Shown: positions 706 through 33,888 of the stretch, piece after piece
How positions within the stretch are numbered: position 1 is the stretch's first letter
How the letters are laid out: the number at the start of each line of letters is the position of its first letter
Origin: an uncultured Nitrospiraceae bacterium
GTDB taxonomy: Bacteria > Nitrospirota > Nitrospiria > Nitrospirales > Nitrospiraceae
NCBI GenBank assembly: GCA_963706325.1
Contig: CAVPLT010000001.1
Location: 480,001-544,000 of the forward strand
Direction of reading: 5' to 3'
DNA length: 64,000 nucleotides
Made by a program: the position numbers and the translations under genes
Notes under the pieces: generated by a model
Database searches by the model: none
What the model was told of the DNA's origin: nothing
The model's input: the letters and a program-made list of their open reading frames with translations, nothing else

Positions 706-1323
706 TCAGTCTAAAAATTGACGAGGGATCGACATCGACTGGGTCGGACCGGAGCTCCTGCCGACCCACACAGTAGACAGAGTTGCATTGCTCACGAAAT
801 GGTTGTAGTGACGCAGCACACGTTCCACATACAGCTGTGTTCCAGGAAGTGACTCCGTACTGGTTGCCTGACTGACGCGTCGTTCGCCTGCATGGTAGGC
901 GGCCAGCGCCAGCGAAAGATCTCCTTCGAATCGGTCCAAGAGCCGACGCAGCAACGCCGCGCCGGCGCGAATGTTGTCGTCCGGATCGAAGGGGTCCAGG
1001 ACATGCAGCGCCGCCGCTGTCAGGGGCATAAGTTGCATCAATCCTAGCGCCCCTTTTGGTGACACCGCCTGGGGGTTATAATTTGATTCGACCTTAATCA
1101 CAGCCTGCAAAAGAGCAGGCTCGAGTTCATATTGCTTGGCGTAAGTGGCAATGAGGGACGGGATCGATTCCATTGGGCGAGGACTACCCACATCGATCAT
1201 GCCGGGATCAAGTGGCAACTGGTTCAATGAGGGCATCACTACCGTCAGGCAGATCGCGACGACCAGCGGACAGAGCGCGCGAGCCAGCTGAAGCAAGCGA
1301 GAGTACCAGTCTGCATGTTGCAT
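706..1323 (-). CDS. Lytic transglycosylase (SLT domain) with N-terminal membrane anchor
   Basis: Motifs VIKVES, GALGLMQLMP, LAAYHAG. Confidence 0.9.
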   Translation of the reverse strand: MQHADWYSRLLQLARALCPLVVAICLTVVMPSLNQLPLDPGMIDVGSPRPMESIPSLIATYAKQYELEPALLQAVIKVESNYNPQAVSPKGALGLMQLMPLTAAALHVLDPFDPDDNIRAGAALLRRLLDRFEGDLSLALAAYHAGERRVSQATSTESLPGTQLYVERVLRHYNHFVSNATLSTVWVGRSSGPTQSMSIPRQFLD

Positions 1324-1610
1324 AATGAAGAGTCGGTTCGACCGTGAGCGTCCTGTGACCAAGCATCTTGAGAAGGATCTCGTCACTATTCCATGCTGAG
1401 GACGGATGTACAAGAAAATGAAAAAAATCGACTTCCCCGTGGCCTCTTGAAGGCGCTACACCCTGGCAAGTTGTATGAGTAGGCCCCAGCATCAAGTGCG
1501 CGACACACACATCCCCTGCCGACCCCTCTACAGGCTATTTCCGTGGAAAACAGACTAGCCGTCGGTAGGCTCGATAACTGACTAGGCCAGAGCGTTCGTC
1601 CGTCCAATGC

Positions 1611-2647: not shown

Positions 2648-2910
2648 TGGAATAGCCCTCCTACAGCCAAGTCGACTCTCACTCATCATCATACCGGAAA
2701 AGCCGTTGCTTCCACCGTTGGGTTAGTCAGTCCCTCACACGGTATTACGAGCGTCTCAACCTATTGGATGTGCGTGTAATCGCCGGGGGCTGGTTTCGTT
2801 CGGGACTCATGGCTGCGTTGGCCCTTTTGGATGCGCGGCTTGGCTTATGACAGGCGAACCTTATAGTCGGCGTCAGGCATTGAGATTTCAGGCGATAACG
2901 AACGGCCAGA

Positions 2911-3114
2911 CAGCTGTTCAAAACGCCGTCCGGCGAGTCCGCAACGATGCGAGGAGGCGGAACGTACCCTTCTTACCCGCCCAGCCCGAGCCTGCCGAGA
3001 CAGGTTCTGAGGGTCAAGATGCGACGGATAAGTAGTGTCAGGGGTGTGAACGTCGCCGAGATGGTGCGGGCGCAGTGTCTCGCGAGAACAAAGCCGCGGA
3101 CTTTTTCAACATCG
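2911..3114. repeat. Degenerate, internally expanded copy of the ~125 bp intergenic inverted-repeat element
   Basis: Ends CAGCTGTTCAAAAC... and ...GCGAGAACAAAGCCGCGGACTTTTTCAACATC resemble the copies at 41911 and 44593. Confidence 0.65.
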
Positions 3115-21330: not shown

Positions 21331-21650
21331 ATGGCTCAGCTTCCTGGGGACTACGGAAAGTTGGTTGCAAGGTCGGTTCGAGCGTAAAGACGAACAGGTG
21401 TTCCCCGACCATTGCATGGATGTCGGTCTGAGGGCAAAGCTCTTCGCTCACCGTCACGACACAAAGGCGTTAACCGTCCTTCTTCTATGCCAGACTCGAT
21501 CATCATAGGAAAGTCGATTATAGCCATCACCGACCTCTTCCTCCAACCTCTTTAACGTCGCATCAGGCCTCACCCTGTTGATACGGACTTCGACCATACG
21601 ATACACTCAGGCGCACTTCACATGTGACGCGACAGCACCTTGACCAAATC

Positions 21651-21719
21651 ATGACTCTCAATCTGCAGAATAACGGCATGAGCATGGCGGCGGCGATTAT
21701 GGTCGCCAGCTCCGCCTGA
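21651..21719 (+). promoter_or_regulatory. Putative leader peptide of ilvA attenuator (MTLNLQNNGMSMAAAIMVASSA; alternative start 21678)
   Basis: Short ORF whose 3' TCCGCC can pair with either the upstream GGCGG or the terminator 5' arm GGCGGA. Confidence 0.6.
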
Positions 21720-21760
21720 GCCTGCCTGCGATCGAGCGCGTTTTCTACGCAAGCAATGAG

Positions 21761-21799
21761 GCCCTTGGCGGAACCGAATCCGCCAGGGGCTTTTTCTTT
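21761..21799 (+). terminator. Intrinsic terminator in ilvA leader
   Basis: 12-bp stem GCCCTTGGCGGA/TCCGCCAGGGGC, 6-nt loop, then TTTTTCTTT. Confidence 0.85.
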
Positions 21800-21849
21800 G
21801 TATGTGGCGCCGGAACTGATTCGAGCGGAGTTTGGAGAAAGGAGTGTGC

Positions 21850-23058
21850 ATGCTGAATCTTGAAGACATCGAAGCGGCAGCCCGCCGGATCAAATCGGCA
21901 GTCTACGAGTCTCCACTGGTGCACTCTAAAATGCTGTCCGACCTGACAGGCAATGCGATCTATTTGAAGCTCGAGAATCTGCAAATGACGGGCTCGTTCA
22001 AGGAACGCGGCGCATTGAACCGCATCCTGACGATGACCGACGACGAGAAGCGGCGCGGCGTGATAGCGGCCTCGGCAGGGAACCACGGGCAGGGGGTCGC
22101 CTATCATGCCGCCAGGCGCGGTATCCCGGCCCAAATCTGGATGCCTCGCTCGACACCGATGGTCAAGCTAGCCGCCACCCGTGCCCATGGCGCCGAGGTC
22201 GTGCTGCATGGGACCTCCTACGATGAGGCATATGAAGGCGCCGTCGAACGGAGCCTGCAGACGAACGCGACATTTGTCCACGCGTTCGATGACGAAGCGG
22301 TGATCGCCGGACAAGGCACCATCGGTTTGGAGATTCTGGCCCAGAACCCGGCGTTGGATGTCATCGTCGCCCCGGTCGGGGGAGGCGGGCTCATTGCGGG
22401 CGTCGGTTGCGCCCTGAAAGGAAGACACGCAGGAATCGAGGTCATCGGCGTTCAAACCTCCCGCCTTCCATCGATGACCGCGGCCCTGAAGTCGAAGATG
22501 CCGGTGAGTCTTCCCCCCGCTTCTACCCTGGCGGACGGAATCGCTGTACGAAGGGCGGGCGCACTCACCCTGCCGCTGGTCAGCAAATATGTGGACCACA
22601 TGGTCACGGTCGAGGAAGCGGACATCGCCGCGGCGATTCTCGTGTTGCTGGAACAGGAGAAAACCTTAGCGGAGGGAGCGGGGGCGATTGCGCTGGCGGC
22701 GGTGCTGCAGGGCAAAACCGGCCATCGTGGCAAACACATTGCCGTATTGGTATCAGGCGGTAATCTTGATGTGAACGTGCTCGCCAGAATCATAGAACAG
22801 GGCATGGTCCGCGATGGGCGACGGCTGCGCTTACGGGTGCGACTGCCCGATTATCCGGGGGCGTTGGAAAGACTGGCCTCGGTGATTGCCAAAGCCAATG
22901 CCAACATTGTGGAGACTTCCTACAACCGTGCACATTATGGAGTGAGTTTAAACGAAGCCGCAATTGACATTACGATGGAAACCCGCGGACGCCATCACGC
23001 CTCGGAATTGTTGGCGACCCTGAAGGATTCGCAGTATGAATATAGTCTGGTGGAATAA
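21850..23058 (+). CDS. ilvA: Threonine ammonia-lyase with single C-terminal ACT domain
   Basis: KLENLQMTGSFKERGA (PLP Lys), ASAGNHGQG, VGGGGL, SGGN, ACT domain LPDYPGAL. Confidence 0.92.
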   Translation: MLNLEDIEAAARRIKSAVYESPLVHSKMLSDLTGNAIYLKLENLQMTGSFKERGALNRILTMTDDEKRRGVIAASAGNHGQGVAYHAARRGIPAQIWMPRSTPMVKLAATRAHGAEVVLHGTSYDEAYEGAVERSLQTNATFVHAFDDEAVIAGQGTIGLEILAQNPALDVIVAPVGGGGLIAGVGCALKGRHAGIEVIGVQTSRLPSMTAALKSKMPVSLPPASTLADGIAVRRAGALTLPLVSKYVDHMVTVEEADIAAAILVLLEQEKTLAEGAGAIALAAVLQGKTGHRGKHIAVLVSGGNLDVNVLARIIEQGMVRDGRRLRLRVRLPDYPGALERLASVIAKANANIVETSYNRAHYGVSLNEAAIDITMETRGRHHASELLATLKDSQYEYSLVE

Positions 23059-23310
23059 ACACCGGCGGGATCATCGAGAAAAACAACAACGGCCACTTTC
23101 CTGCGCCCTGTGGCGCCCGATTGCCGACCGGCTCCCGGAATTTTTCTTGCATTCTTCGCCCTTCACAGCTAGATCTAACACAGTTTTTCGGTGGTGCCGT
23201 CCAGCGGTCGTGACTCATGCGCGACCTGGACCCACGTGTGTGTTAATGCAATGAGACAGGCAGTATGGTCTTGCCGGTGGTTCCCCCGCGGGAAAGGCCG
23301 GGGACAGTGC

Positions 23311-23363
23311 AGGCCAGTCGTTGGTCCTTTTCTTAAGGACCGTCGGTTGGCCTTTTTCTTTTC
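23311..23363 (+). terminator. Intrinsic terminator about 20 nt upstream of the dabB start
   Basis: Stem AGGCCAGTCGTTGGTCCTT/AAGGACCGTCGGTTGGCCT (G-U pairs, one mismatch) followed by TTTTCTTTT. Confidence 0.75.
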
Positions 23364-23383
23364 ATGAGCCGAATGGATTCCGC

Positions 23384-25083
23384 ATGGTCTTGCTAGTGCT
23401 CGTGCCGCTCTTGCCACTGTTGACAGCGTTCATCGTGATGACCGGTCATCGCGCCGATCAAGATCAGACTGCGAAGGCCGGCCTGTTCCCTATCGTCGCC
23501 GCCTTCGTTGGGGCGCTCGTCACTCTGGTGCTCGTGCCCTCCGAGGGGGCTATCACGGTACAATTCTATGACCCGGCCGCCATGGCCAATCTCGCCTTTC
23601 CCATCGGATTCTACATCGACCGGCTGAGCGCGGTCATGATGGTCCTGATTTCGGGAGTGACCGCGCTCATCTATCGCTACTCGGTGGGCTACATGTACCA
23701 AGATCGCGGCTATCGCCGATACCTCGGGCTACTCGGCATCACCACCTCGGTACTACTCTGCATGGTGTGCAGCGCCAATCTGGTGATGTTATTTATGTTT
23801 TGGCAAATTCTTCCCTGGCTTCTCTTTCTCGCTGGCGCACAACCACGGGCATGTCGCGACGCTCGCGGGCGCCTCCAACACCTTTACGCTCTTGCGCCTC
23901 GGCGACGTGGTCTTTCTCGCCGGGATTGTGCTGGCCTATTCGCTCTATGGCACCTTCGAGTTTCAGGCGCTGTTCGCTCGCGCCGCGGAGATTCCCGTGA
24001 CCCTGTCTCTCTGGCCTGCTCTGGCTGGGAAATGGACGGCGTCACGGCGGTGACCTTGCTCATTTTCGTCGGCGCCATGAGCAAGTCGGCTCAGTTCCCG
24101 CTCCATACGTGGCTTCCACGATCGCTCTATGCGCCGACGCCGGTCCACGCGCTGCTGCATGCCGGCATCATCAACGCGGGAGGCTTTTTACTGAACCGAC
24201 TCGCCCCGCTCTATGGTCTGAGTCCCGACCACGCTTGCACGTCGTATTCCTCATCGGCATGCTGACCGCCATTCTCGGCGCGACTATGATGTTGACCCAG
24301 AACGACATCAAGAAGACGCTCGGCTTTTCGACCATCGGCCAGATGGGCTACATGATTATGGAATGCGGGTTGGGCGCGTTTTCCCTCGCCGTGTTCCATC
24401 TCATCGCGCACGGACTGTTCAAGGGCTACCGTCTTTTTGAACTGCGGCAACGTGATTCATAAGGCCCGACAAGAACCCTCGTTCCCGCAGGCCGGTCACG
24501 AGGCGGAAGACAGCCAGATTCTCCAACCTGACCTGGTCCACCGGATTCGTGACGACGCTCCTCTTGCCGCTCGTGATCCTCTTGGTCACGCATGGCATCT
24601 TGAGAATTCCGCTGCTGGAATCGCAGGGGACCGTGATCTTTCTGTTCTTTATCTGGGTCACGTCCTCGCAGGCCATTCTGTCATTGACGCGCATTCGCGC
24701 CGTCGCGTCCTGGAAGGTGTCCGCCGCCATGCTGCTTACGCTCATCTTCGTCCTGTTCACCTACCTGTTCGCGGTCGAGAGCTTCACGCATTTCCTTTAC
24801 CCCGATCCCGATGAGGTGGCGTCGTACTTTCGAGGCCGCGGCATTGCCGGGCCGGCTCTTCGATCGCCTGGTGTCGGGCACGACGTTGTTGACGTCCTCG
24901 GCTGGTTTTACGTCTATGCCCATGCGCATGGGCGGACGATCCGCATGCCAGCCTGGATTGAAGGGTCTTCTGACTCGTCTGTATGTCCTGTTTATGAATC
25001 GACTCTATCTCGACGCAGCTGTATTTCAAACTCGGCCGGGTCGTGACGCTGGTCGCCCATCGGCTGGAGAAACGGTCTCGTGA
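23384..25083 (+). CDS. dabB: DabB-like (NuoL/ND5 family) membrane subunit of inorganic carbon pump; several frameshifts
   Basis: IDRLSAVM, KSAQFPLHTWLP, APTPVHALLHAG, QNDIKKTLGFST, HLIAHGLFK found across successive frames; in operon with DUF2309. Confidence 0.85.
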
Positions 25084-25143
25084 CGATGTCCGCACCAGGA
25101 ACGCACACGTCAGCGATCCGCTATGCCTGGCCGGAGGCCGGTC

Positions 25144-26468
25144 ATGATACAGGCTTGGATGACGCCCTGGCTTCTCGTCGCCATTCCGTGCCCTCGGCGC
25201 GGTCCTCAGCCTGCTCTGGTGGTCCTCGCTTCACCGGATGAAAACCTGGGGCGCTCACTCACCGCGATGGCGAGCTTGCTCGCGTGATGGCCCTGTCGTG
25301 GGTGCAGGACCGAGTCGCTCGCCGGCATGCCGTTACTCTGCCTGCTCCCATTGACGGCGTTCCTCTCGCTGCTTGGGACAGCCGCTGCACCCGGATAACC
25401 GCGCTGGCCTGGTCTGTCGACGTTGGTGCTGTTGGGATTGGGATTGGGAATTCTGACCGGTCAGGAACTGCCTCGCAGCTTCATGCTTGTCATCCTTCTT
25501 GGGCTTTTCTGCGGCTTGCATCTCTCGTTCGCGGAATGGCGCCTCCCTGAAGTCTGGCGAGCGCTGGCGATCCTACGGCCTGGGCATGGCCTCGGCCATG
25601 CTGTCCCTGGTTCTCCCGAGCACCGGCGTCCACAGTCGCTGTCCTGGTCACCTGTGCGACCCTCCTCCCTCTGTTTCCTCTGCACGGAGGATTCGTCGCG
25701 AGCCCTCACCGGATTGCCGGGCAATCTTCCCGCGTTTGCAGTCGTGCTGTTGCCCGTGGTCGGCTTTCACAGCCTCCTGCTAGGCTGCTTCCGAACCTGA
25801 CCGGAGCGATGCTTCCAACTCGTGACCATTCTGGCGCTGGTGGGCGCCTGTTATGGTTCGCTCCTGGCATGGATCAGTCACGCGTCCTCTCTCGCCTCGC
25901 CTACGCAGGCCTTGCCTTCTTGTCAATACTCTGGTGGTATGTCGCAGGCACGGGAACTGCGCCCGTGCAAACCACTGGTGTACCTCAGCGCCGTCGGCCT
26001 CGCGATGAGCGGGCTTTTGCTCGCCTGGTACTCGATTCGGGCTCGCTACGGCGACATCGACGTGCGCTCGCTTGGCGGCATTGGCTTACCCTATGCCGCG
26101 CTTCAGTACCCTGCTGTCGTTGCTGGCACTCGCGGCCCTCGGCATGCCGCCCTTCGGTGTCTTTTCCGGCTTCATGGGCATGCTGCTCAATCCTGCCTTC
26201 TCTCCTTCGGGACCGTTCGCCGTCATCATGCTCGTCTGGCTCAGCGCATCCTGGTACTTTCTGGATACTGGTGCAATCGGTTGGTCTTCGGCCGGCAACG
26301 GCCGGATCTGCGGTATGAAGACCTGCACCAGACGGAATTCGCGTCTCTCCTGATGCTGCTGGTTCTCCTGTTGGCCCTCGGCATCGCTCCCTTCTCGACT
26401 CTTTCAGTCGAACGCCACCACTCCATCGGAGGCTGTGGCGATCAAGGCTGCCGACATGGATCCAGTAG
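25144..26468 (+). CDS. Second, degenerate antiporter-like (NuoM/MrpD-like) membrane subunit; several frameshifts
   Basis: GGAGG RBS; fragments LPLFPLHGG, LAYAGLAFLS, GxLAYPMPRF, LAALGMPPFGVFSGF; boundaries approximate. Confidence 0.7.
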
Positions 26469-29400
26469 ACACAACGGACCACAGACCGGACCTCGAAGCG
26501 CGACGTATGGAGTTGCGGGGAATGATTCGCCTCGCCAGCGAGGTGATCGCCCAATACTGGCCCATGCGGACGTTCGTCCACCACAATCCGCTGCATAGCC
26601 TGGAGTATCTTCCGTTCACTGAGACGGTTCGTCGCGGCCAACAGTTCTTGGGAGGGCAGCGGCTATCTTCCGGGTGAACGTGTATCGACGCTATCTGAAG
26701 TCCGGCAGGATTCAGGTCCCCACATCGAGGAAGCATTGGCTCCGCTGGCGCGTGATCAGGAAGTGACCCTCGGACCCTGCAGCATTTCGCACCGTGAGGT
26801 GTTGCGGGCCTGCATGACACACGGACTGTCCACGTCCATGCACGAACCGCTCGATCCTCTGATGAGACGCGAGCCGAATGAGGAGCAAATCGAAGCTCTG
26901 GCCGAGCGCTTGGTTCCTTTTCGCGCCGACCGTCAAGGAACGCATGACCACCACGGTCCGCGAGGACTGTGGCCGCGTTGGGACGACAATTGACCCTCAC
27001 GGTTGGTGCGATCAAACGCTCGGCACCCAGATCGTGAACCAGATCAACGGCGAGTTGATCAAGTGGTGTGAGGCCTTTCTGGACGAGGGACATGCCACCT
27101 GGTCGATGCCTGGGACGGGAACAGGGTCTCTACGCGGCGTGGAAACGACTGGCGGTGAAGCGAATGGACGACTTGCGGTATCGCGGAGAGTCGCCGGAAA
27201 ATTGCATCCGCTGTCCGGAGCATCCCGAGGACACGGTGTTTGACTGCCTCGAAGCGTTGGCGATTCCCGCGGAGTTCCGTCACGATTACCTCTCGCTCCA
27301 ACTCGCCGCCCTTCCCGGTTGGGCTGGATTCATCAAATGGCGTGCGGAAGAGGACGCGCTATGCCTGGCAACAGGCCTATCCCGTCGGACTGGTCAAGTT
27401 TCTCGCTGTCCGCTTGTGGTACGTGCGCGAACTGGTCCAGAAAGTTTGCCAAGAAGAATTGGGTATCGAGGGAAACTATCGCGCGAGTCTCAACCTATAT
27501 GGAAGCAGCATCCCCATGCCTACTTCATGCGTAAGGAACAGGCCGCGGGACGGTTGCCGCCCGTCTATGCCGAACGAGTCGATCGCCTCCATGCCCAGAC
27601 GCAGCAGGACGCCAGGCGATCGGCAGCCTTGTCGCACGAGTGGGAACAGCTCACGCAGCAGTACCAGATGGAATTCGGATCGCCATCGCGAGCAGGCCGC
27701 GCGCCGAGTCATGGCCCGACGTCTCCTCACTCTCGCCCACGCGCTCGAGATCGTGCCCAGCCGTGTTGATGGAGGTTCCCCGACCGACCTTCGCGTGCTC
27801 GTGGATTGGATGGAGGCCTTTCCGGAATCGGCCCATGGCCCCGTGTGGCTCAAGGCCTTCGAAGCAGGATATCAGGACCATCTGTTCGGCATGCTGCTGC
27901 GCGCGTCGGCCAAGCCCCAACCGGCCGGTCCCGGAACATCAACCGCCGGTGCGGCCCCATTCGCAATCGGTCTTTTGCATTGACGTCCGGTCTGAGCCAT
28001 TCCGCCGCCATTTGGAATCGACCGGCGCAAACGATACGTATGGATTCGCCGGATTCTTCGCAGTCTTCATTCGGTATCGAGCATGGGGCAAGGAACATGA
28101 AACGGAGCAGTTTCCGGTGATCATGCGCGCGAAGAACGAAGTACGCGAGATCCCCCGCAGCTATCTGGATCACTACGTGTCTCAAGCACCAGTCACGGGC
28201 CAAACTCGTCCATGCCGGACATACCCTGTTGCATGATCTCAAGGAAAATGTCGTCACGCCGTACGTCATGGTGGAGTCGATCGGGTGGTTCTACGGCTTA
28301 CCCATTGTCGGGAAGACGGTGCTTCCCGCACTGTACAAACGTATCACCGACTGGGTGCGGCGTCTGTTTGTGCCGCCGATCGCCACCAGCGTCACGGTGG
28401 ACAAATTCGCCCCGGCCGAGACCGAAGAGATGCTGGTCGCCGAACAACGCGCGCTGATATGGAAGGCACTGCGCGATCGGCTCAGTCTCCATGGATCGCG
28501 GGTCGATCCCGAGTTCGTCGAAGCGTTACGACGGCGGGCACTGGACGAGGATGCGCCGGTCGAGCCCTTCTTGAGCAACGCGGCCAAGTCCGTCGGATCT
28601 GTCTGTGCAGAGCAGCTGACGGCGTTTCTCGAGGAACTCCGGGGGCACTACCGGATCAATCGCCGCGCGGCTTCTCGCCAGAAAGAACGGATTACGCGCA
28701 CCGGGTTCACCATCGAGGAGCAGGTCATCACCGTTGAAACCGCCTTGCGCATGATGGGCTTGATCAGGAACTTCGCGCGGCTCGTGCTGTTCTGCGCGCA
28801 CGGAAGCACCGACCGAGAACAACCCGTTCGAATCGGCCCTGGACTGCGGCGCCTGCGGAGGGACACGAAGGGAAACCCAATGCGCGTGTGCTGGCGGCGA
28901 TGGCAAATCGACCGCCGGTCCGAGAACGGCTGACAAGGCGTGGCATCGAGATTCCATCGGATACGCACTTTCGTCGCCGGACAGGTGGACACGACGACCG
29001 ATGAGGTGCAGCTGTTTGATCTCGAAGATGTGCCGCCGACACACCGCAAGGACGTGCGCCCGGTTGCTTGATGACTTGCGAGAAGCCGCCCAATTGACGA
29101 GCCAAGAGCGCTGCACGCGTTTCCCGGATGTCGAACGCCATCCTACCGGTTGCCCGAGGCGCGTCTCTGTGGACGGCCGGAGCGCAGACTGGAGCCAGGT
29201 GCGGCCCGAGTGGGGCCTCTCCAGCAATACGGCCTTCATCATCGGCCGACGAGATCTGACGAAAGGACTCAACCTGTCCGGACGCGTCTTTCTGCACTCC
29301 TACGATTATCGCGAAGATCCGACCGACCGTTGCTCGAAGTGGTGCTGACGGCGCCGCAAGTGGTGGCGCAGTGGATCAATATGGAACATTATTTTTCAGC

Positions 29401-29741
29401 CGTGGACAATGATGTGTACGGAAGCGGCAGCAAGATTTACCACAACGTGGTCGGGCGCGTCGGCGTCATGTCCGGTCCGTGGAGCGATCTCCGACTCGGG
29501 CTGGCGTGGCAGACCGTCATGAACGACGAGCTGCCCTACCACGAACCGATGCGCCTCCTGACGCTGGTCGAGGCGTCGCGCGCGCGCATCGAGATACTCA
29601 TCGCACGACATGAGGTGCTGCAACATTTTTATCACAACGAGTGGGTACACCTGGCCGACACTGGACCCGGAGGACGGAACGTGGTACCGCTATGTACCGT
29701 CCGGTTTCTGGCGTCGGGTCAGGAATCCGGCGGATACGTGA
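26456..29741 (+). CDS. dabA: DabA (DUF2309/UPF0753) beta-carbonic-anhydrase-like subunit; many frameshifts
   Basis: YWPMRTFVHHNPL, LPGWAGFIKWR, FCIDVRSE, GFAGFF, HGS...ALDCGAC (Zn ligands), DWSQVRPEWGL, FLHSYDY, YHEPMRL. Confidence 0.9.
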
Positions 29742-29796
29742 GGCACGGGCTAGACATCATCGTGTAAGATTAGGCTTTTTTCAAAGGAGTTGACAT

Positions 29797-30138
29797 ATGG
29801 GCGGACTGACGTTGCATCCCATGAAAGAAATCCGTGTGATCGTGTCGGGTGACAACCGCCCTTCGTGACCGAGCTGTTGGATAGAGTGGAGGCCACCGGA
29901 TACACCATCATCGGCAATATCTCCGGGAAGGGCCATCATGGCGTGCGAGAGGCCCACTTCATGTTCAGCGAACAGGAGAGCCTGGTCATGATCATGACGG
30001 TCGTGCCGGAAGAAAAGGTGGAACCGATGCTCGCCGGGCTGCGACCGCTATTCGAACGATACTCAGGCGTCATGTTCGTCTCTGACGTGACCGTGAGCCG
30101 GCGTGAGTACTTCGGCGAAGAAGGCGCCCAAGTCCTGA
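29797..30138 (+). CDS. PII-like (SbtB-type) regulator; two frameshifts
   Basis: AAGGAG RBS; MGGLTLHPMKEIRVIV...ATGYTIIGNISGKGHHG...GVMFVSDV. Confidence 0.8.
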
Positions 30139-30373
30139 GTCCACCGTCCCGGACCCCGCTCCTATCAGAGCTCGCGCGACGATGGGCTGAACCTTGTCTT
30201 TGTAGTACTGATTGTCTACAATGTGCGCGGCTTGACCTGTAAGAGGAAGGACAGGACGTGAAGGGACTTACGGTTCGAACGGCTCGGACGAAACCGCCAT
30301 TACAATATCATTTTCCACATCGGCAGCAGCTATGTACCGGTAAGCGATGACACTATCGAAGAACTTAAGTCCC

Positions 30374-30580
30374 AATACTCTACTGTCTTCTGAACGCTTC
30401 CTCGAACTCCTCGTCGACAAAATCGGTTACTCCAGCTACCTGAAGGCCCAGATCCGCTCAGAACTCCAAATCGCCGGCGATCCGATGACTCAGATTACGG
30501 TCCTGCAAGGCGCCATTCGGGAACTGTAACGCGCGTCCCTCGTCCATTCTCACCATCCGTATATTCTCAACCTTCAATGA
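30374..30580 (+). repeat. Copy 1 of duplicated gene 3' end (...LKAQIRSELQIAGDPMTQITVLQGAIREL*) plus downstream sequence
   Basis: Aligns by eye with 31277-31483. Confidence 0.75.
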
Positions 30581-31626: not shown

Positions 31627-31655
31627 TTGATCCCAAATTGGGATCATGGTAGACT
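31627..31655 (+). promoter_or_regulatory. higBA promoter with overlapping palindromic operator
   Basis: TTGATC-17 bp-TAGACT; perfect inverted repeat TGATCCCAA-A-TTGGGATCA at 31628-31646. Confidence 0.75.
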
Positions 31656-31660
31656 GCCCC

Positions 31661-31954
31661 GTGCGCATCATCGCGAAGCGGACTCTAGGCACATTCTGGA
31701 ATCGGTACCCGCGCGCGCGAGGACCTTTAGAAGCCTGGCATCAGGAAGTGGTTCATGCAGACTGGACAAGCCCGTCGGAGCTTAAAGCTCAGTTTCGCTC
31801 AGCGAGTGTGCTGCAAGGCAGCCGCGCGGTGTTCAACATTGCAGGGAACCAGTACCGATTGGTGGTGAAGATTAACTACGCCTATCGGATTGTCTATATC
31901 CGTTTCGTCGGCACCCATCAAGAGTATGACCAGATCGATGTACACACCGTCTGA
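31661..31954 (+). CDS. higB: HigB toxin (RelE superfamily mRNA interferase)
   Basis: MRIIAKRTL, VFNIAGNQYRLV, IRFVGTHQEYD. Confidence 0.92.
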   Translation: MRIIAKRTLGTFWNRYPRARGPLEAWHQEVVHADWTSPSELKAQFRSASVLQGSRAVFNIAGNQYRLVVKINYAYRIVYIRFVGTHQEYDQIDVHTV

Positions 31955-31969
31955 CAAGGTGCAGAAGCC

Positions 31970-32329
31970 ATGAATATTTCTCCTATCAAAACCAAGCGGG
32001 ATCATGAGCGCGCATTGCTCCGCATCGAACACCTGATGGATGCAAAGCTCGGCACCAAAGCCGGAGATGAGTTGGACATTCTCACCACCCTCGTGGAAGC
32101 CTACGAGGCCAAGCATCATGCAGTCAGTCCACCTGATCCCGTTGAAGCGATTCGATTTCGGATGGAACAATTAGGCATGAGCCGGAAGGATTTGGAGGCA
32201 TTGCTCGGAGGGCGAGGCCGAGTCTCTGAAATTCTCTCTAAAAAACGCGGCCTCTCACTGACTATGATTCGTCGAATCCATCGCACACTCCACATTCCAC
32301 TCGAAAGCCTGATTGGCACAGCGGCGTAG
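31970..32329 (+). CDS. higA: HigA antitoxin (HTH)
   Basis: LVEAYE, PDPVEAIRFRMEQ, RVSEILSKKRGLSLTMIR. Confidence 0.92.
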   Translation: MNISPIKTKRDHERALLRIEHLMDAKLGTKAGDELDILTTLVEAYEAKHHAVSPPDPVEAIRFRMEQLGMSRKDLEALLGGRGRVSEILSKKRGLSLTMIRRIHRTLHIPLESLIGTAA

Positions 32330-32521
32330 GATCACTGCGGAGCATGCCCTTCCCTTTAGAATTCAACATTAGAGCTCAAAACGCGCGGCCGTAGGCAGGA
32401 AAGATGGCAGTACGCACTAGCGCTCCGAACGGCACCAACTTTAAGGTGTTGTTAAGCGCTTCCTCTGGGGGTTAACTCTTTACATCCGAGTCGAAACTCG
32501 TGGTGCCCGCACACATTTCGA

Positions 32522-33442
32522 TCATTCGAGGTCTTCTTCGAAGAAGTCCGAGTCCACTCTTTTGATTTCATACGTCGAGGCGATAGACACACCCACATCG
32601 TGATCAATCATATAACCTGCTAACTGAGTGCCGCCGATGAGGATGATTCGAGAGGAGTATACCGACGCCAATGCATCTCTGGTGAATGTAGATGTGGTGA
32701 TGAAGATGCCTTTGGTTGCCTTCATTTTTGACAGCGCGCCGGCGAATTGATCAATGTCCGGGCTGCCCACCGGCTTGTCGTTCCACCGTTTTGCTTGAAT
32801 ATAGATATTGTCCAGCCCGAGCTTATCTTGGCGAATCACTCCATCGACTCCCCCATCTTTGCTCTTGCCCACAGCTTGACCAGCGTCCTTGAGTGAGCCC
32901 CCGTATCCCATTCGGACCAGTAACAGGATGACGAGTCGTTCGAAGAACTGAGGGCTGCATTTTTTCACCCTTTCGAGAACTTCCGATGCAAGAGCTTCTC
33001 GCAACCGCTCGTATTGGGTTGCTAACGATTCGATTGGCGTCTCGGCAGAGCCTGGGGCTTGGATTTCGACTTTATCCGTTCTACGATCCTTCTTGCGTCC
33101 CTGGAACTCCCGGAACTCCTCGAACTGCGACAGAAGGCTTCCATCGATGCGGACCGGTTTATTCTTGAGAACAGCCCGCCCACGATCAGTAACGCGGAAA
33201 TGTCCTCGCTTCGTTGCTTCAAGGAGACCGGCCTTTTGTAGATATGTACGAGCCCATGAAACACGGGAAGAGAATTTGAAGGTCCCCCCGCTCGGGAGAA
33301 GCTCATGCCGATCCTCGGTAGTCAGCTTGAACTGTACAGCCAATTGTTCAACGGCGACAACGAGCGGAACCTCCTGTCCATTCGCCTCCCCGGCGATCTG
33401 TAACAGAGGAAGCATTAGGGTTTCGTAGTCTGGAATTCCCAT
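32522..33442 (-). CDS. mrr: Mrr family type IV restriction endonuclease
   Basis: MGIPDYETLMLPLL, WARTYL, SPQFFERLV, DGGVDG, YIQAKRW, KGIFITTS. Confidence 0.9.
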   Translation of the reverse strand: MGIPDYETLMLPLLQIAGEANGQEVPLVVAVEQLAVQFKLTTEDRHELLPSGGTFKFSSRVSWARTYLQKAGLLEATKRGHFRVTDRGRAVLKNKPVRIDGSLLSQFEEFREFQGRKKDRRTDKVEIQAPGSAETPIESLATQYERLREALASEVLERVKKCSPQFFERLVILLLVRMGYGGSLKDAGQAVGKSKDGGVDGVIRQDKLGLDNIYIQAKRWNDKPVGSPDIDQFAGALSKMKATKGIFITTSTFTRDALASVYSSRIILIGGTQLAGYMIDHDVGVSIASTYEIKRVDSDFFEEDLE

Positions 33443-33888
33443 GGTCACATAAGGCGAAGGTTGAGCGGGAACCATGCTGGATCAGCCATTGGCATTCGCC
33501 TCAATACCTCACCACTCTTTGTCTTTGAGTTTATCCAACTCTTCAGGGTAAGCCGGAAGTCGAGGCTTGTGGATTTTTTTAAACAGGTTCTCGATTTCAT
33601 ACACTCCTGAATCTTCTCAAATCATCCGTTTCGCTCTACATACATATGGCAGACCCCCTTCTCGGCAATTTCGCATTCTCGAGGATCTTCGATCGACAAA
33701 ACATCCTCGGCGCCCATGAAAGCCACTACGCAAGTGCGTGGCCTCTTTGTTCGATCGCGCGCATTGAGAGAACACCGCCACATAACTCCTCAGAGGATCT
33801 GAGGTGATATGCTTCCACTGCGCACGTCGACCGAGGTCCTTCCCGGAGCGCGCGGTCCGCGAGCAAGGAAGCACATCGCCTCGGGTCC

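Follow-up and report, generated by a model that had tools for sequence, protein, structure and literature searches.

The 5' leader of the DAB operon in the stretch of DNA analysed here (64,000 nucleotides, below called the window) belongs to an uncatalogued, order-wide attenuator of inorganic-carbon genes in the Nitrospirales. This attenuator probably turns carbon-uptake genes on when inorganic carbon is low and is operated by the protein MpsC, a reading drawn from comparative sequence analysis to which we give about an even chance. A sequence-only reading had proposed a riboswitch-like leader at 23255..23384; the element is real, and it reaches about 110 nt further upstream. The operon products, read off the intact orthologue in genome G026, are DabB (PF00361 and PF00662), a NuoM-like subunit, DabA (PF10070) and a P-II-like protein, in keeping with the earlier assignment of the downstream genes to a DAB inorganic-carbon operon. 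The features are collected in Table 1.

Table 1. Features of the dabB leader and its surroundings, in window coordinates.
Feature	Position	Strand	Remarks
mpsC/DUF2294 3' remnant, last ~25 codons, divergent	21353..21427	-	tblastn 56% over 25 aa, E 1.4e-4 (within window)
ilvA (threonine ammonia-lyase), outside the switch	21832..23058	+	within a ~1.7-kb stretch replacing the 5' part of mpsC
sigma70-like promoter (TTGCAT, 17-nt spacer, TAGATC)	23147..23175	+	predicted; conserved in genus alignment
5' hairpin P0	23190..23235	+	conserved within genus, variable beyond
conserved core, ~60 nt	23255..23319	+	R2 core-model match, alignment, covariation
intrinsic terminator (predicted)	23311..23363	+	5' arm begins with GCC of P1a
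dabB	23384..25095 (end approximate)	+	frameshifted in assembly
rest of operon: NuoM-like subunit, dabA (~26456-29767), P-II-like gene	25100..30150	+	approximate; many 1-nt indels relative to G026

The same-genus alignment shows that the -35 box (TTGCA(A/T)), the -10-like box (TA(C/G)AT(C/G)), the 5' hairpin, the core and the terminator are all conserved, and that the sequence 5' of the promoter is unrelated among these leaders. The -10 box is non-canonical, and a consensus promoter scanner did not pick up the predicted promoter. Judged by the position of the boxes, transcription would start around 23182, about 7 nt past the -10 box. A TTG..17-18..TA element is found about 90-140 nt 5' of the core in most of the loci listed. 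The P0 hairpin is apparently dispensable in some copies; the distance from promoter to core is just 58 nt in L063/L064. At the locus of a relative, one contig from an RNA library bridges the core, the terminator and the start of dabB, and another also spans the promoter, which is compatible with DNA or with upstream transcription.

A BLAST search with positions 23050-23700 matched 33 of the 36 same-genus genomes, mostly from about 23165, at the promoter. A model of the whole leader then brought in more distant copies, and their comparison trimmed the conserved part to the core, giving the core model R2. R2 finds the core in 110 of 151 Nitrospirales genomes and in none of 125 other Nitrospirota genomes, 29 of which encode DabA. 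The core in the window scores 43.5 bits (E 1.5e-8), the window sequence itself being part of the R2 training set. No R2 core was found near mpsC or DAB genes in other lineages, nor any in five genomes whose matches to the search pattern had looked like chance, and a scan of viral contigs gave no core.

As an independent control, GTDB genomes were scanned with a pattern free of the P2 pairing and of the terminator, which yielded at least 121 stretches. Among the matches listed, 102 carry Nitrospirota labels, two (L144 and L155) were grouped with them by their downstream dabB, and 17 have other labels. A terminator starting at the GCC is present in 104/104 Nitrospirota-type stretches against 0/17 of the others, and P2 forms on average 7.2 of its 8 pairs in the former against 2.6 in the latter, again among the matches listed. 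The next gene in these 104 listed matches encodes DabB in 65, MnhE in 13, SulP in 11 and DabA in 4, with 11 flanks too short for assignment, so that the assigned downstream genes in this set are solely dabB/dabA, SulP/BicA-like and Mrp genes. A scan of metagenomes gave at least 120 stretches; among the matches listed a terminator is called in 95, with DabB (73), MnhE (12) or SulP (3) as the next gene and none assigned in 7, and the 25 listed stretches that have no terminator call are mostly chance matches or truncated at the edge of a contig. In some genomes the core occurs three times within about 10 kb, in front of SulP, dabA and Mrp genes.

A few loci deserve separate mention. L100/L101, a single 3.4-kb contig, has two copies of the core, each 5' of a dabB-like gene. 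In L237 (1733-12354), L241 and L240, mnhE-F-G-B-C-D and NuoL/NuoM-like genes come immediately after dabA, and the usual dabB in front is absent; the gene order suggests a possible DabA-Mrp hybrid pump in these Nitrospirales. Sub-threshold radC RNA matches in L057/L059 (about 1131-1261, plus strand) are found within SulP coding regions and were treated as chance.

The structure of the core was derived from 58 of 132 unique cores, which were left after a 90% redundancy filter and aligned without fitting to the structure. At its base is the helix P1a (23259-61 paired with 23313-15) with a purine loop above it, followed by P1b (3 bp, 23263-65 with 23308-10), a GG/AG loop, and the covarying stem P2 (23268-23305) with a variable loop. 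In the 58-core alignment 91.8% of the P2 cells are paired, and 8 of the 15 pairs have changes on both sides. For covariation the alignment scores 0.314 and shuffles 0.192; none of 500 shuffles reaches the observed value, and slid controls are at or below 0.112. One pair is U-A in 28 cores, U-G in 17 and C-G in 13 with zero exceptions; its 3' base had been free in the search pattern. The sequence-only reading's proposal of a structured leader is in this respect upheld, as orthologous leaders are both conserved and covarying. RNAalifold recovers the P1b and P2 pairs and not P1a, the support for which consists of near-invariant bases that were partly fixed by the search pattern, together with variation of the third pair in the long form of the leader described below.

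The consensus of the core is GGY-N(1-2)-GUAGGGY-hairpin-CAGURCARGCC, and the terminator begins with its final three bases. About 14 near-invariant nucleotides are grouped in the internal loops, an invariance that is partly by construction as core positions were set by the search pattern, while stems and apical loop are variable. The tolerance of G-U pairs and an arm spacing that ranges from about 14 to 36 nt point to an RNA rather than a DNA operator. An A>G variant of the core was considered as a mark of decay and dropped, since the pair is kept as G-U and the variant recurs before dabA.

The terminator had been judged strong from the outset, its end lying some 20 nt ahead of the dabB ATG, and this is borne out by a fold z of -5.0 and by 200 shuffles, none of which is as stable. 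Its first bases, GCC (23313-23315), double as the strand that closes the core. In nascent RNA ending at 23318-23346 the probability of P1a is 0.56-0.98; it drops to 0 once the 3' arm of the terminator emerges, and P1b and P2 persist. In the window the terminated fold is the more stable one by 5.4 kcal/mol, and over 151 leaders by 3.1+/-2.2 kcal/mol. Since the core with P1a folds first and the terminated fold wins, the simplest logic would be a leader that is OFF by default and turned ON when the core is stabilised. The sequence-only reading had described two mutually exclusive folds, with a helix between 23266-23274 and 23309-23316 taking up the 5' arm of the terminator. An upstream fold does compete for this arm, but the two exclude each other only in part: P1b/P2, the upper hairpin, persists beside the terminator, and the base helix of 3-6 bp alone is swapped. 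The helix first suggested is possible, but in nascent RNA it lies 9.4 kcal/mol above the conserved fold (-23.4 against -32.8); its pairing probability is at most 0.04, and by inspection it is not complementary in most members outside the genus.

The leader could not be matched to a known riboswitch class when it was first noticed, and the Rfam scan agrees. No Rfam 15 family reaches its gathering threshold in the window, and at E<=10 the region 23000-23450 has only two chance matches. The motif from 20 distant loci gave no match at E<=10, and no family matched the long-form leaders from 18 loci. Some of the features by which riboswitches are generally recognised, a conserved and covarying structure in a 5' leader, an expression platform and coherent downstream genes, are found here; direct, protein-free ligand binding would be the defining one. 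Antiterminators of the BglG/SacY/LicT/GlcT type act on the RAT, a short hairpin that contains two internal loops and overlaps the 5' arm of a terminator at its 3' end. The leader resembles these systems in that a core hairpin with internal loops overlaps the terminator 5' arm, a regulator gene lies beside or behind the leader, and the ON state would come from stabilisation of the hairpin. It differs in that the candidate regulator MpsC/DUF2294 belongs to another family and the targets are CO2/HCO3- genes, not sugar genes. The cyanobacterial NdhR/CcmR is a DNA-binding LysR repressor of a low-carbon regulon (bicA, sbtA, ndhF3, mnh). Both systems bring a CO2 pump, a SulP bicarbonate transporter and a Na+/H+ antiporter under one control, which is a DNA-binding repressor there and an RNA attenuator here.

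The Na+ riboswitch (DUF1646, RF03071) is, according to the accessible text of its description (PMC9337991), likewise a small terminator-linked ON switch before ion-transport genes, with a two-hairpin consensus in which the base of P1 and the loop of P2 are conserved. The leader is a single interrupted helix before a different set of genes; it gave no RF03071 match at E<=10, and the two-hairpin consensus is not found in it. The Li+ riboswitches nhaA-I/II and the sul1 motif are also cis-regulatory RNAs before Na+/H+ antiporter or SulP genes, as far as the accessible text tells (PMC5737381); unlike these, the leader has no Rfam match and was not found before nhaA. Clustering of Mrp and BicA genes in Nitrospira has been reported, and Mrp-driven uptake by BicA proposed (10.1101/2020.03.05.977850, PMC8115632); the accessible parts of this work do not mention the leader, and the proposal fits a single carbon-uptake regulon. 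The element is likewise undescribed in the accessible parts of PMC9337991, PMC11109978, PMC12342949, PMC5737381, PMC8632094, PMC11394868 and 10.1101/476713, where a motif given in a supplement alone could be missed. The literature search found no published description of the leader, work on MpsC/DUF2294 with antitermination lying outside its scope, and no account of how carbon uptake is adjusted in reverse-TCA autotrophs such as Nitrospira.

Most relatives have a divergent mpsC gene (PF10057) where the window has ilvA. Among 137 DabA-encoding Nitrospirales genomes the core is present in 98 of the 101 with a close MpsC homologue as against 12 of the 36 without, figures that are inflated by the kinship of the genomes and by physical linkage. 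As the genomes are kin, P values overstate the association, and as mpsC usually adjoins the leader, shared loss may reflect linkage. Weak core scores (E>1e-4) are seen in 7 of the 12 core-bearing genomes that lack MpsC against 4 of the 98 that have it. The genome of the window (G000) is among the 12 that retain the core, and in G026 leader and operon are intact though mpsC is truncated. In the complete genome G159, where all that is left of dabA is a broken remnant (G159:C1:1429335-1429793), the core is absent and mpsC is kept. The predicted model of MpsC has a pLDDT of 91.8. A fold search with it gave nothing above Z 8, the best matches (Z 7.1) being unrelated proteins; a 30S-RbfA entry aligned over 89 residues with Z 5.8 and rmsd 4.0. 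No solved structure was found among MpsC relatives, and the protein is not basic (18 K+R, 19 D+E). In Staphylococcus aureus mpsA expression falls in 5% CO2, and deletion of mpsC gave no growth defect (PMC6689103, accessible text); the former speaks for the low-carbon MpsC reading and the latter against it, the status of the leader in S. aureus aside.

Outside the Nitrospirales a longer leader is found beside mpsC, which shares with the core the GG..CC base, the AG/AA loop, the upper purine loop and the overlap with the terminator. This long form is seen in other Nitrospirota and in the phylum of G308 (Bacillota). A descriptor for it matched 23 times in 47 loci, compared with 6 matches in shuffled sequence (487 kb). 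The model R3, built from 18 long-form leaders without Nitrospirales and with two poorly aligned rows, covaries (0/500 shuffles reach its score). R3 is found in 6 of 8 other Nitrospirota genomes with MpsC, three of the six being training genomes, against 0 of 117 without. In the G308 phylum it is found in 9 of 151 genomes, eight of them with MpsC (five of these in training); the ninth match has no terminator. The genes behind the long form encode SbtA, carbonic anhydrase, PEP carboxylase, ATP-citrate lyase, PurE, DUF4914, DabB and MpsC itself, and some copies precede genes lacking an obvious link to carbon (MFS and DASS/CitMHS transporters). When run on Nitrospirales cores, R3 matches weakly in 6 of 11 loci (E 0.07-1.9, each match on the leader) and does not match the copy in the window at E<=3, so that a shared origin of the two forms is not secured. 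It is possible, at somewhat less than even chances, that MpsC/DUF2294 (YbcI) represents a so far unrecognised family of RNA-binding antiterminators which respond to CO2/bicarbonate, the leader being its target form in Nitrospirales, and that the two together govern a set of inorganic-carbon genes extending across phyla (DAB, SulP/BicA, SbtA, Mrp, carbonic anhydrase, PEP carboxylase, ATP-citrate lyase and PurE). Among the long-form loci, L222 has a tandem pair of leaders with terminators (2827-3010, plus strand) between mpsC and dabB, and in L378, L379 and L390 a further variant with a CC/AG lower loop is found past mpsC, before an unassigned conserved ORF. In L404 a c-di-AMP riboswitch (1278-1412, minus strand) lies just 3' of mpsC, before an amino-acid permease gene.

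The attenuator may work as follows. RNA made from the upstream promoter would fold the core hairpin first. By default the 3' arm of the terminator would strip the base helix from the core, so that the terminator closes and transcription stops 5' of dabB. If the core is stabilised, the GCC strand would be held in P1a, the terminator could not close beside the U-tract, and transcription would read through into dabB, the nuoM-like gene, dabA and the P-II gene. The most likely stabiliser is the small protein MpsC/DUF2294, which at low CO2/HCO3- would bind the RNA at its two purine-rich internal loops and so work as an antiterminator.

The sequence-only reading had favoured an RNA sensor controlling carbon uptake. 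A conserved, covarying cis-regulatory RNA with the layout of an ON switch is indeed what is found, but a ligand-binding sensor is no longer the leading reading, since the core tracks MpsC/DUF2294; taken as a whole, the Na+ class included, a riboswitch is a serious though rather unlikely alternative. In its general form, which is slightly less probable again, the core would bind a small ligand that rises at low inorganic carbon or high pH and so block the terminator, mpsC being a linked member of the regulon; the signal might for example be a carboxylation substrate (AIR, acetyl-CoA or PEP), a nucleotide signal or a change in protonation. The clustering of near-invariant bases in internal loops, with variable stems and apical loop, is aptamer-like, the small ON-type overlap is within reach of ligand binding energy, leaders persist in the 12 genomes without a close MpsC, and long-form leaders also precede mpsC itself. 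Such a riboswitch leaves unexplained, however, why cores still in place score weakly where mpsC is lost and DAB kept, and why R3 is restricted to MpsC-bearing genomes even when the copies on other contigs are included. The middle helix moreover differs in length between lineages, which is hard to reconcile with one fixed pocket, and neither a pseudoknot nor a multi-way junction was seen. Na+, one of the signals first suggested, is disfavoured. A new class of Na+ (or alkali-cation) riboswitch turning on Na+-coupled transporters would suit the Mrp and SulP/BicA-like targets, the NhaD and NhaR-type regulator genes in the same clusters and the Na+ coupling proposed for S. aureus MpsAB in the accessible literature, yet it is very improbable: in five core-bearing genomes R2 has no match at E<=2 before six nhaA genes or one nqrA locus, H. 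neapolitanus DAB2 does not depend on Na+ according to the accessible text of 10.64898/2026.03.13.711513, the leader is not RF03071, and soluble carboxylases are among the long-form targets.

Explanations other than MpsC or a ligand-binding riboswitch are improbable even when taken together. Another RNA-binding protein, of the BglG/LicT or ANTAR type, linked to P-II or of some other kind, could run the attenuator, as the hairpin with two internal loops over a terminator recalls the RAT, one ANTAR protein is encoded in G000 and the operon itself encodes a P-II-like protein. No CAT_RBD antiterminator domain (PF03123) is found in G000 (96% complete), however, and co-occurrence points to MpsC, which makes such a protein quite improbable. 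ANTAR targets have conserved apical loops, and those of the core are not conserved. It is scarcely probable that there is no switch at all, the hairpin being the ordinary ilvA terminator, the motif a DNA operator, or the leader an attenuator based on a leader peptide. The terminator does lie 250 nt past ilvA, but ilvA is a late insertion that has replaced mpsC, which is found divergent at this spot in relatives; the hairpin is not the ilvA terminator. Tolerance of G-U pairs and variable spacing of the arms fit an RNA and not an operator. An ATG-started frame of 23 codons, noted in the sequence-only reading as an alternative mechanism, is present and overlaps the terminator in G000, but the G>T change that creates its ATG (23265) occurs in just one of 34 leaders from the genus, and the other ORFs in the leaders share no start, frame or length. 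A metagenome scan for this allele gave no match.

Nitrospira are major nitrifiers in water treatment, soil and ocean, and the leader provides a small concrete cis element with a defined regulon and a named candidate factor. If true, the finding is new either way, as a riboswitch class for inorganic carbon or by giving the orphan MpsC a role in CO2-responsive antitermination, and either outcome could serve as a genetic part responding to CO2/bicarbonate.

The copy in the window may itself be orphaned, as mpsC is truncated in G000, where PF10057 has no match. The replacement that carries ilvA covers 21428-23169; its junction with the mpsC remnant is the same as in the relatives L004/L005, and G026 has the same layout with a longer remnant. 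About 80 one-base indels relative to G026, mostly insertions, are found at 23831-30376; they are confined to the DAB operon region, and the coding body of ilvA has none. The pattern probably reflects local assembly error in a poorly polished region, or possibly decay. A second dabB-dabA-P-II operon, intact and without the core, is found outside the window (G000:C1:83452-88725), divergent from pyruvate dehydrogenase-like genes. The same 10 bases occur at 23265-23274, at the start of the short frame, and at 23384-23393, at the start of dabB; the repeat is not shared by relatives and is probably due to chance. Next to the operon, at 31646-33475, are ORFs that we take, from their resemblance, to be a HigB/HigA-type toxin-antitoxin pair and an Mrr-like nuclease.
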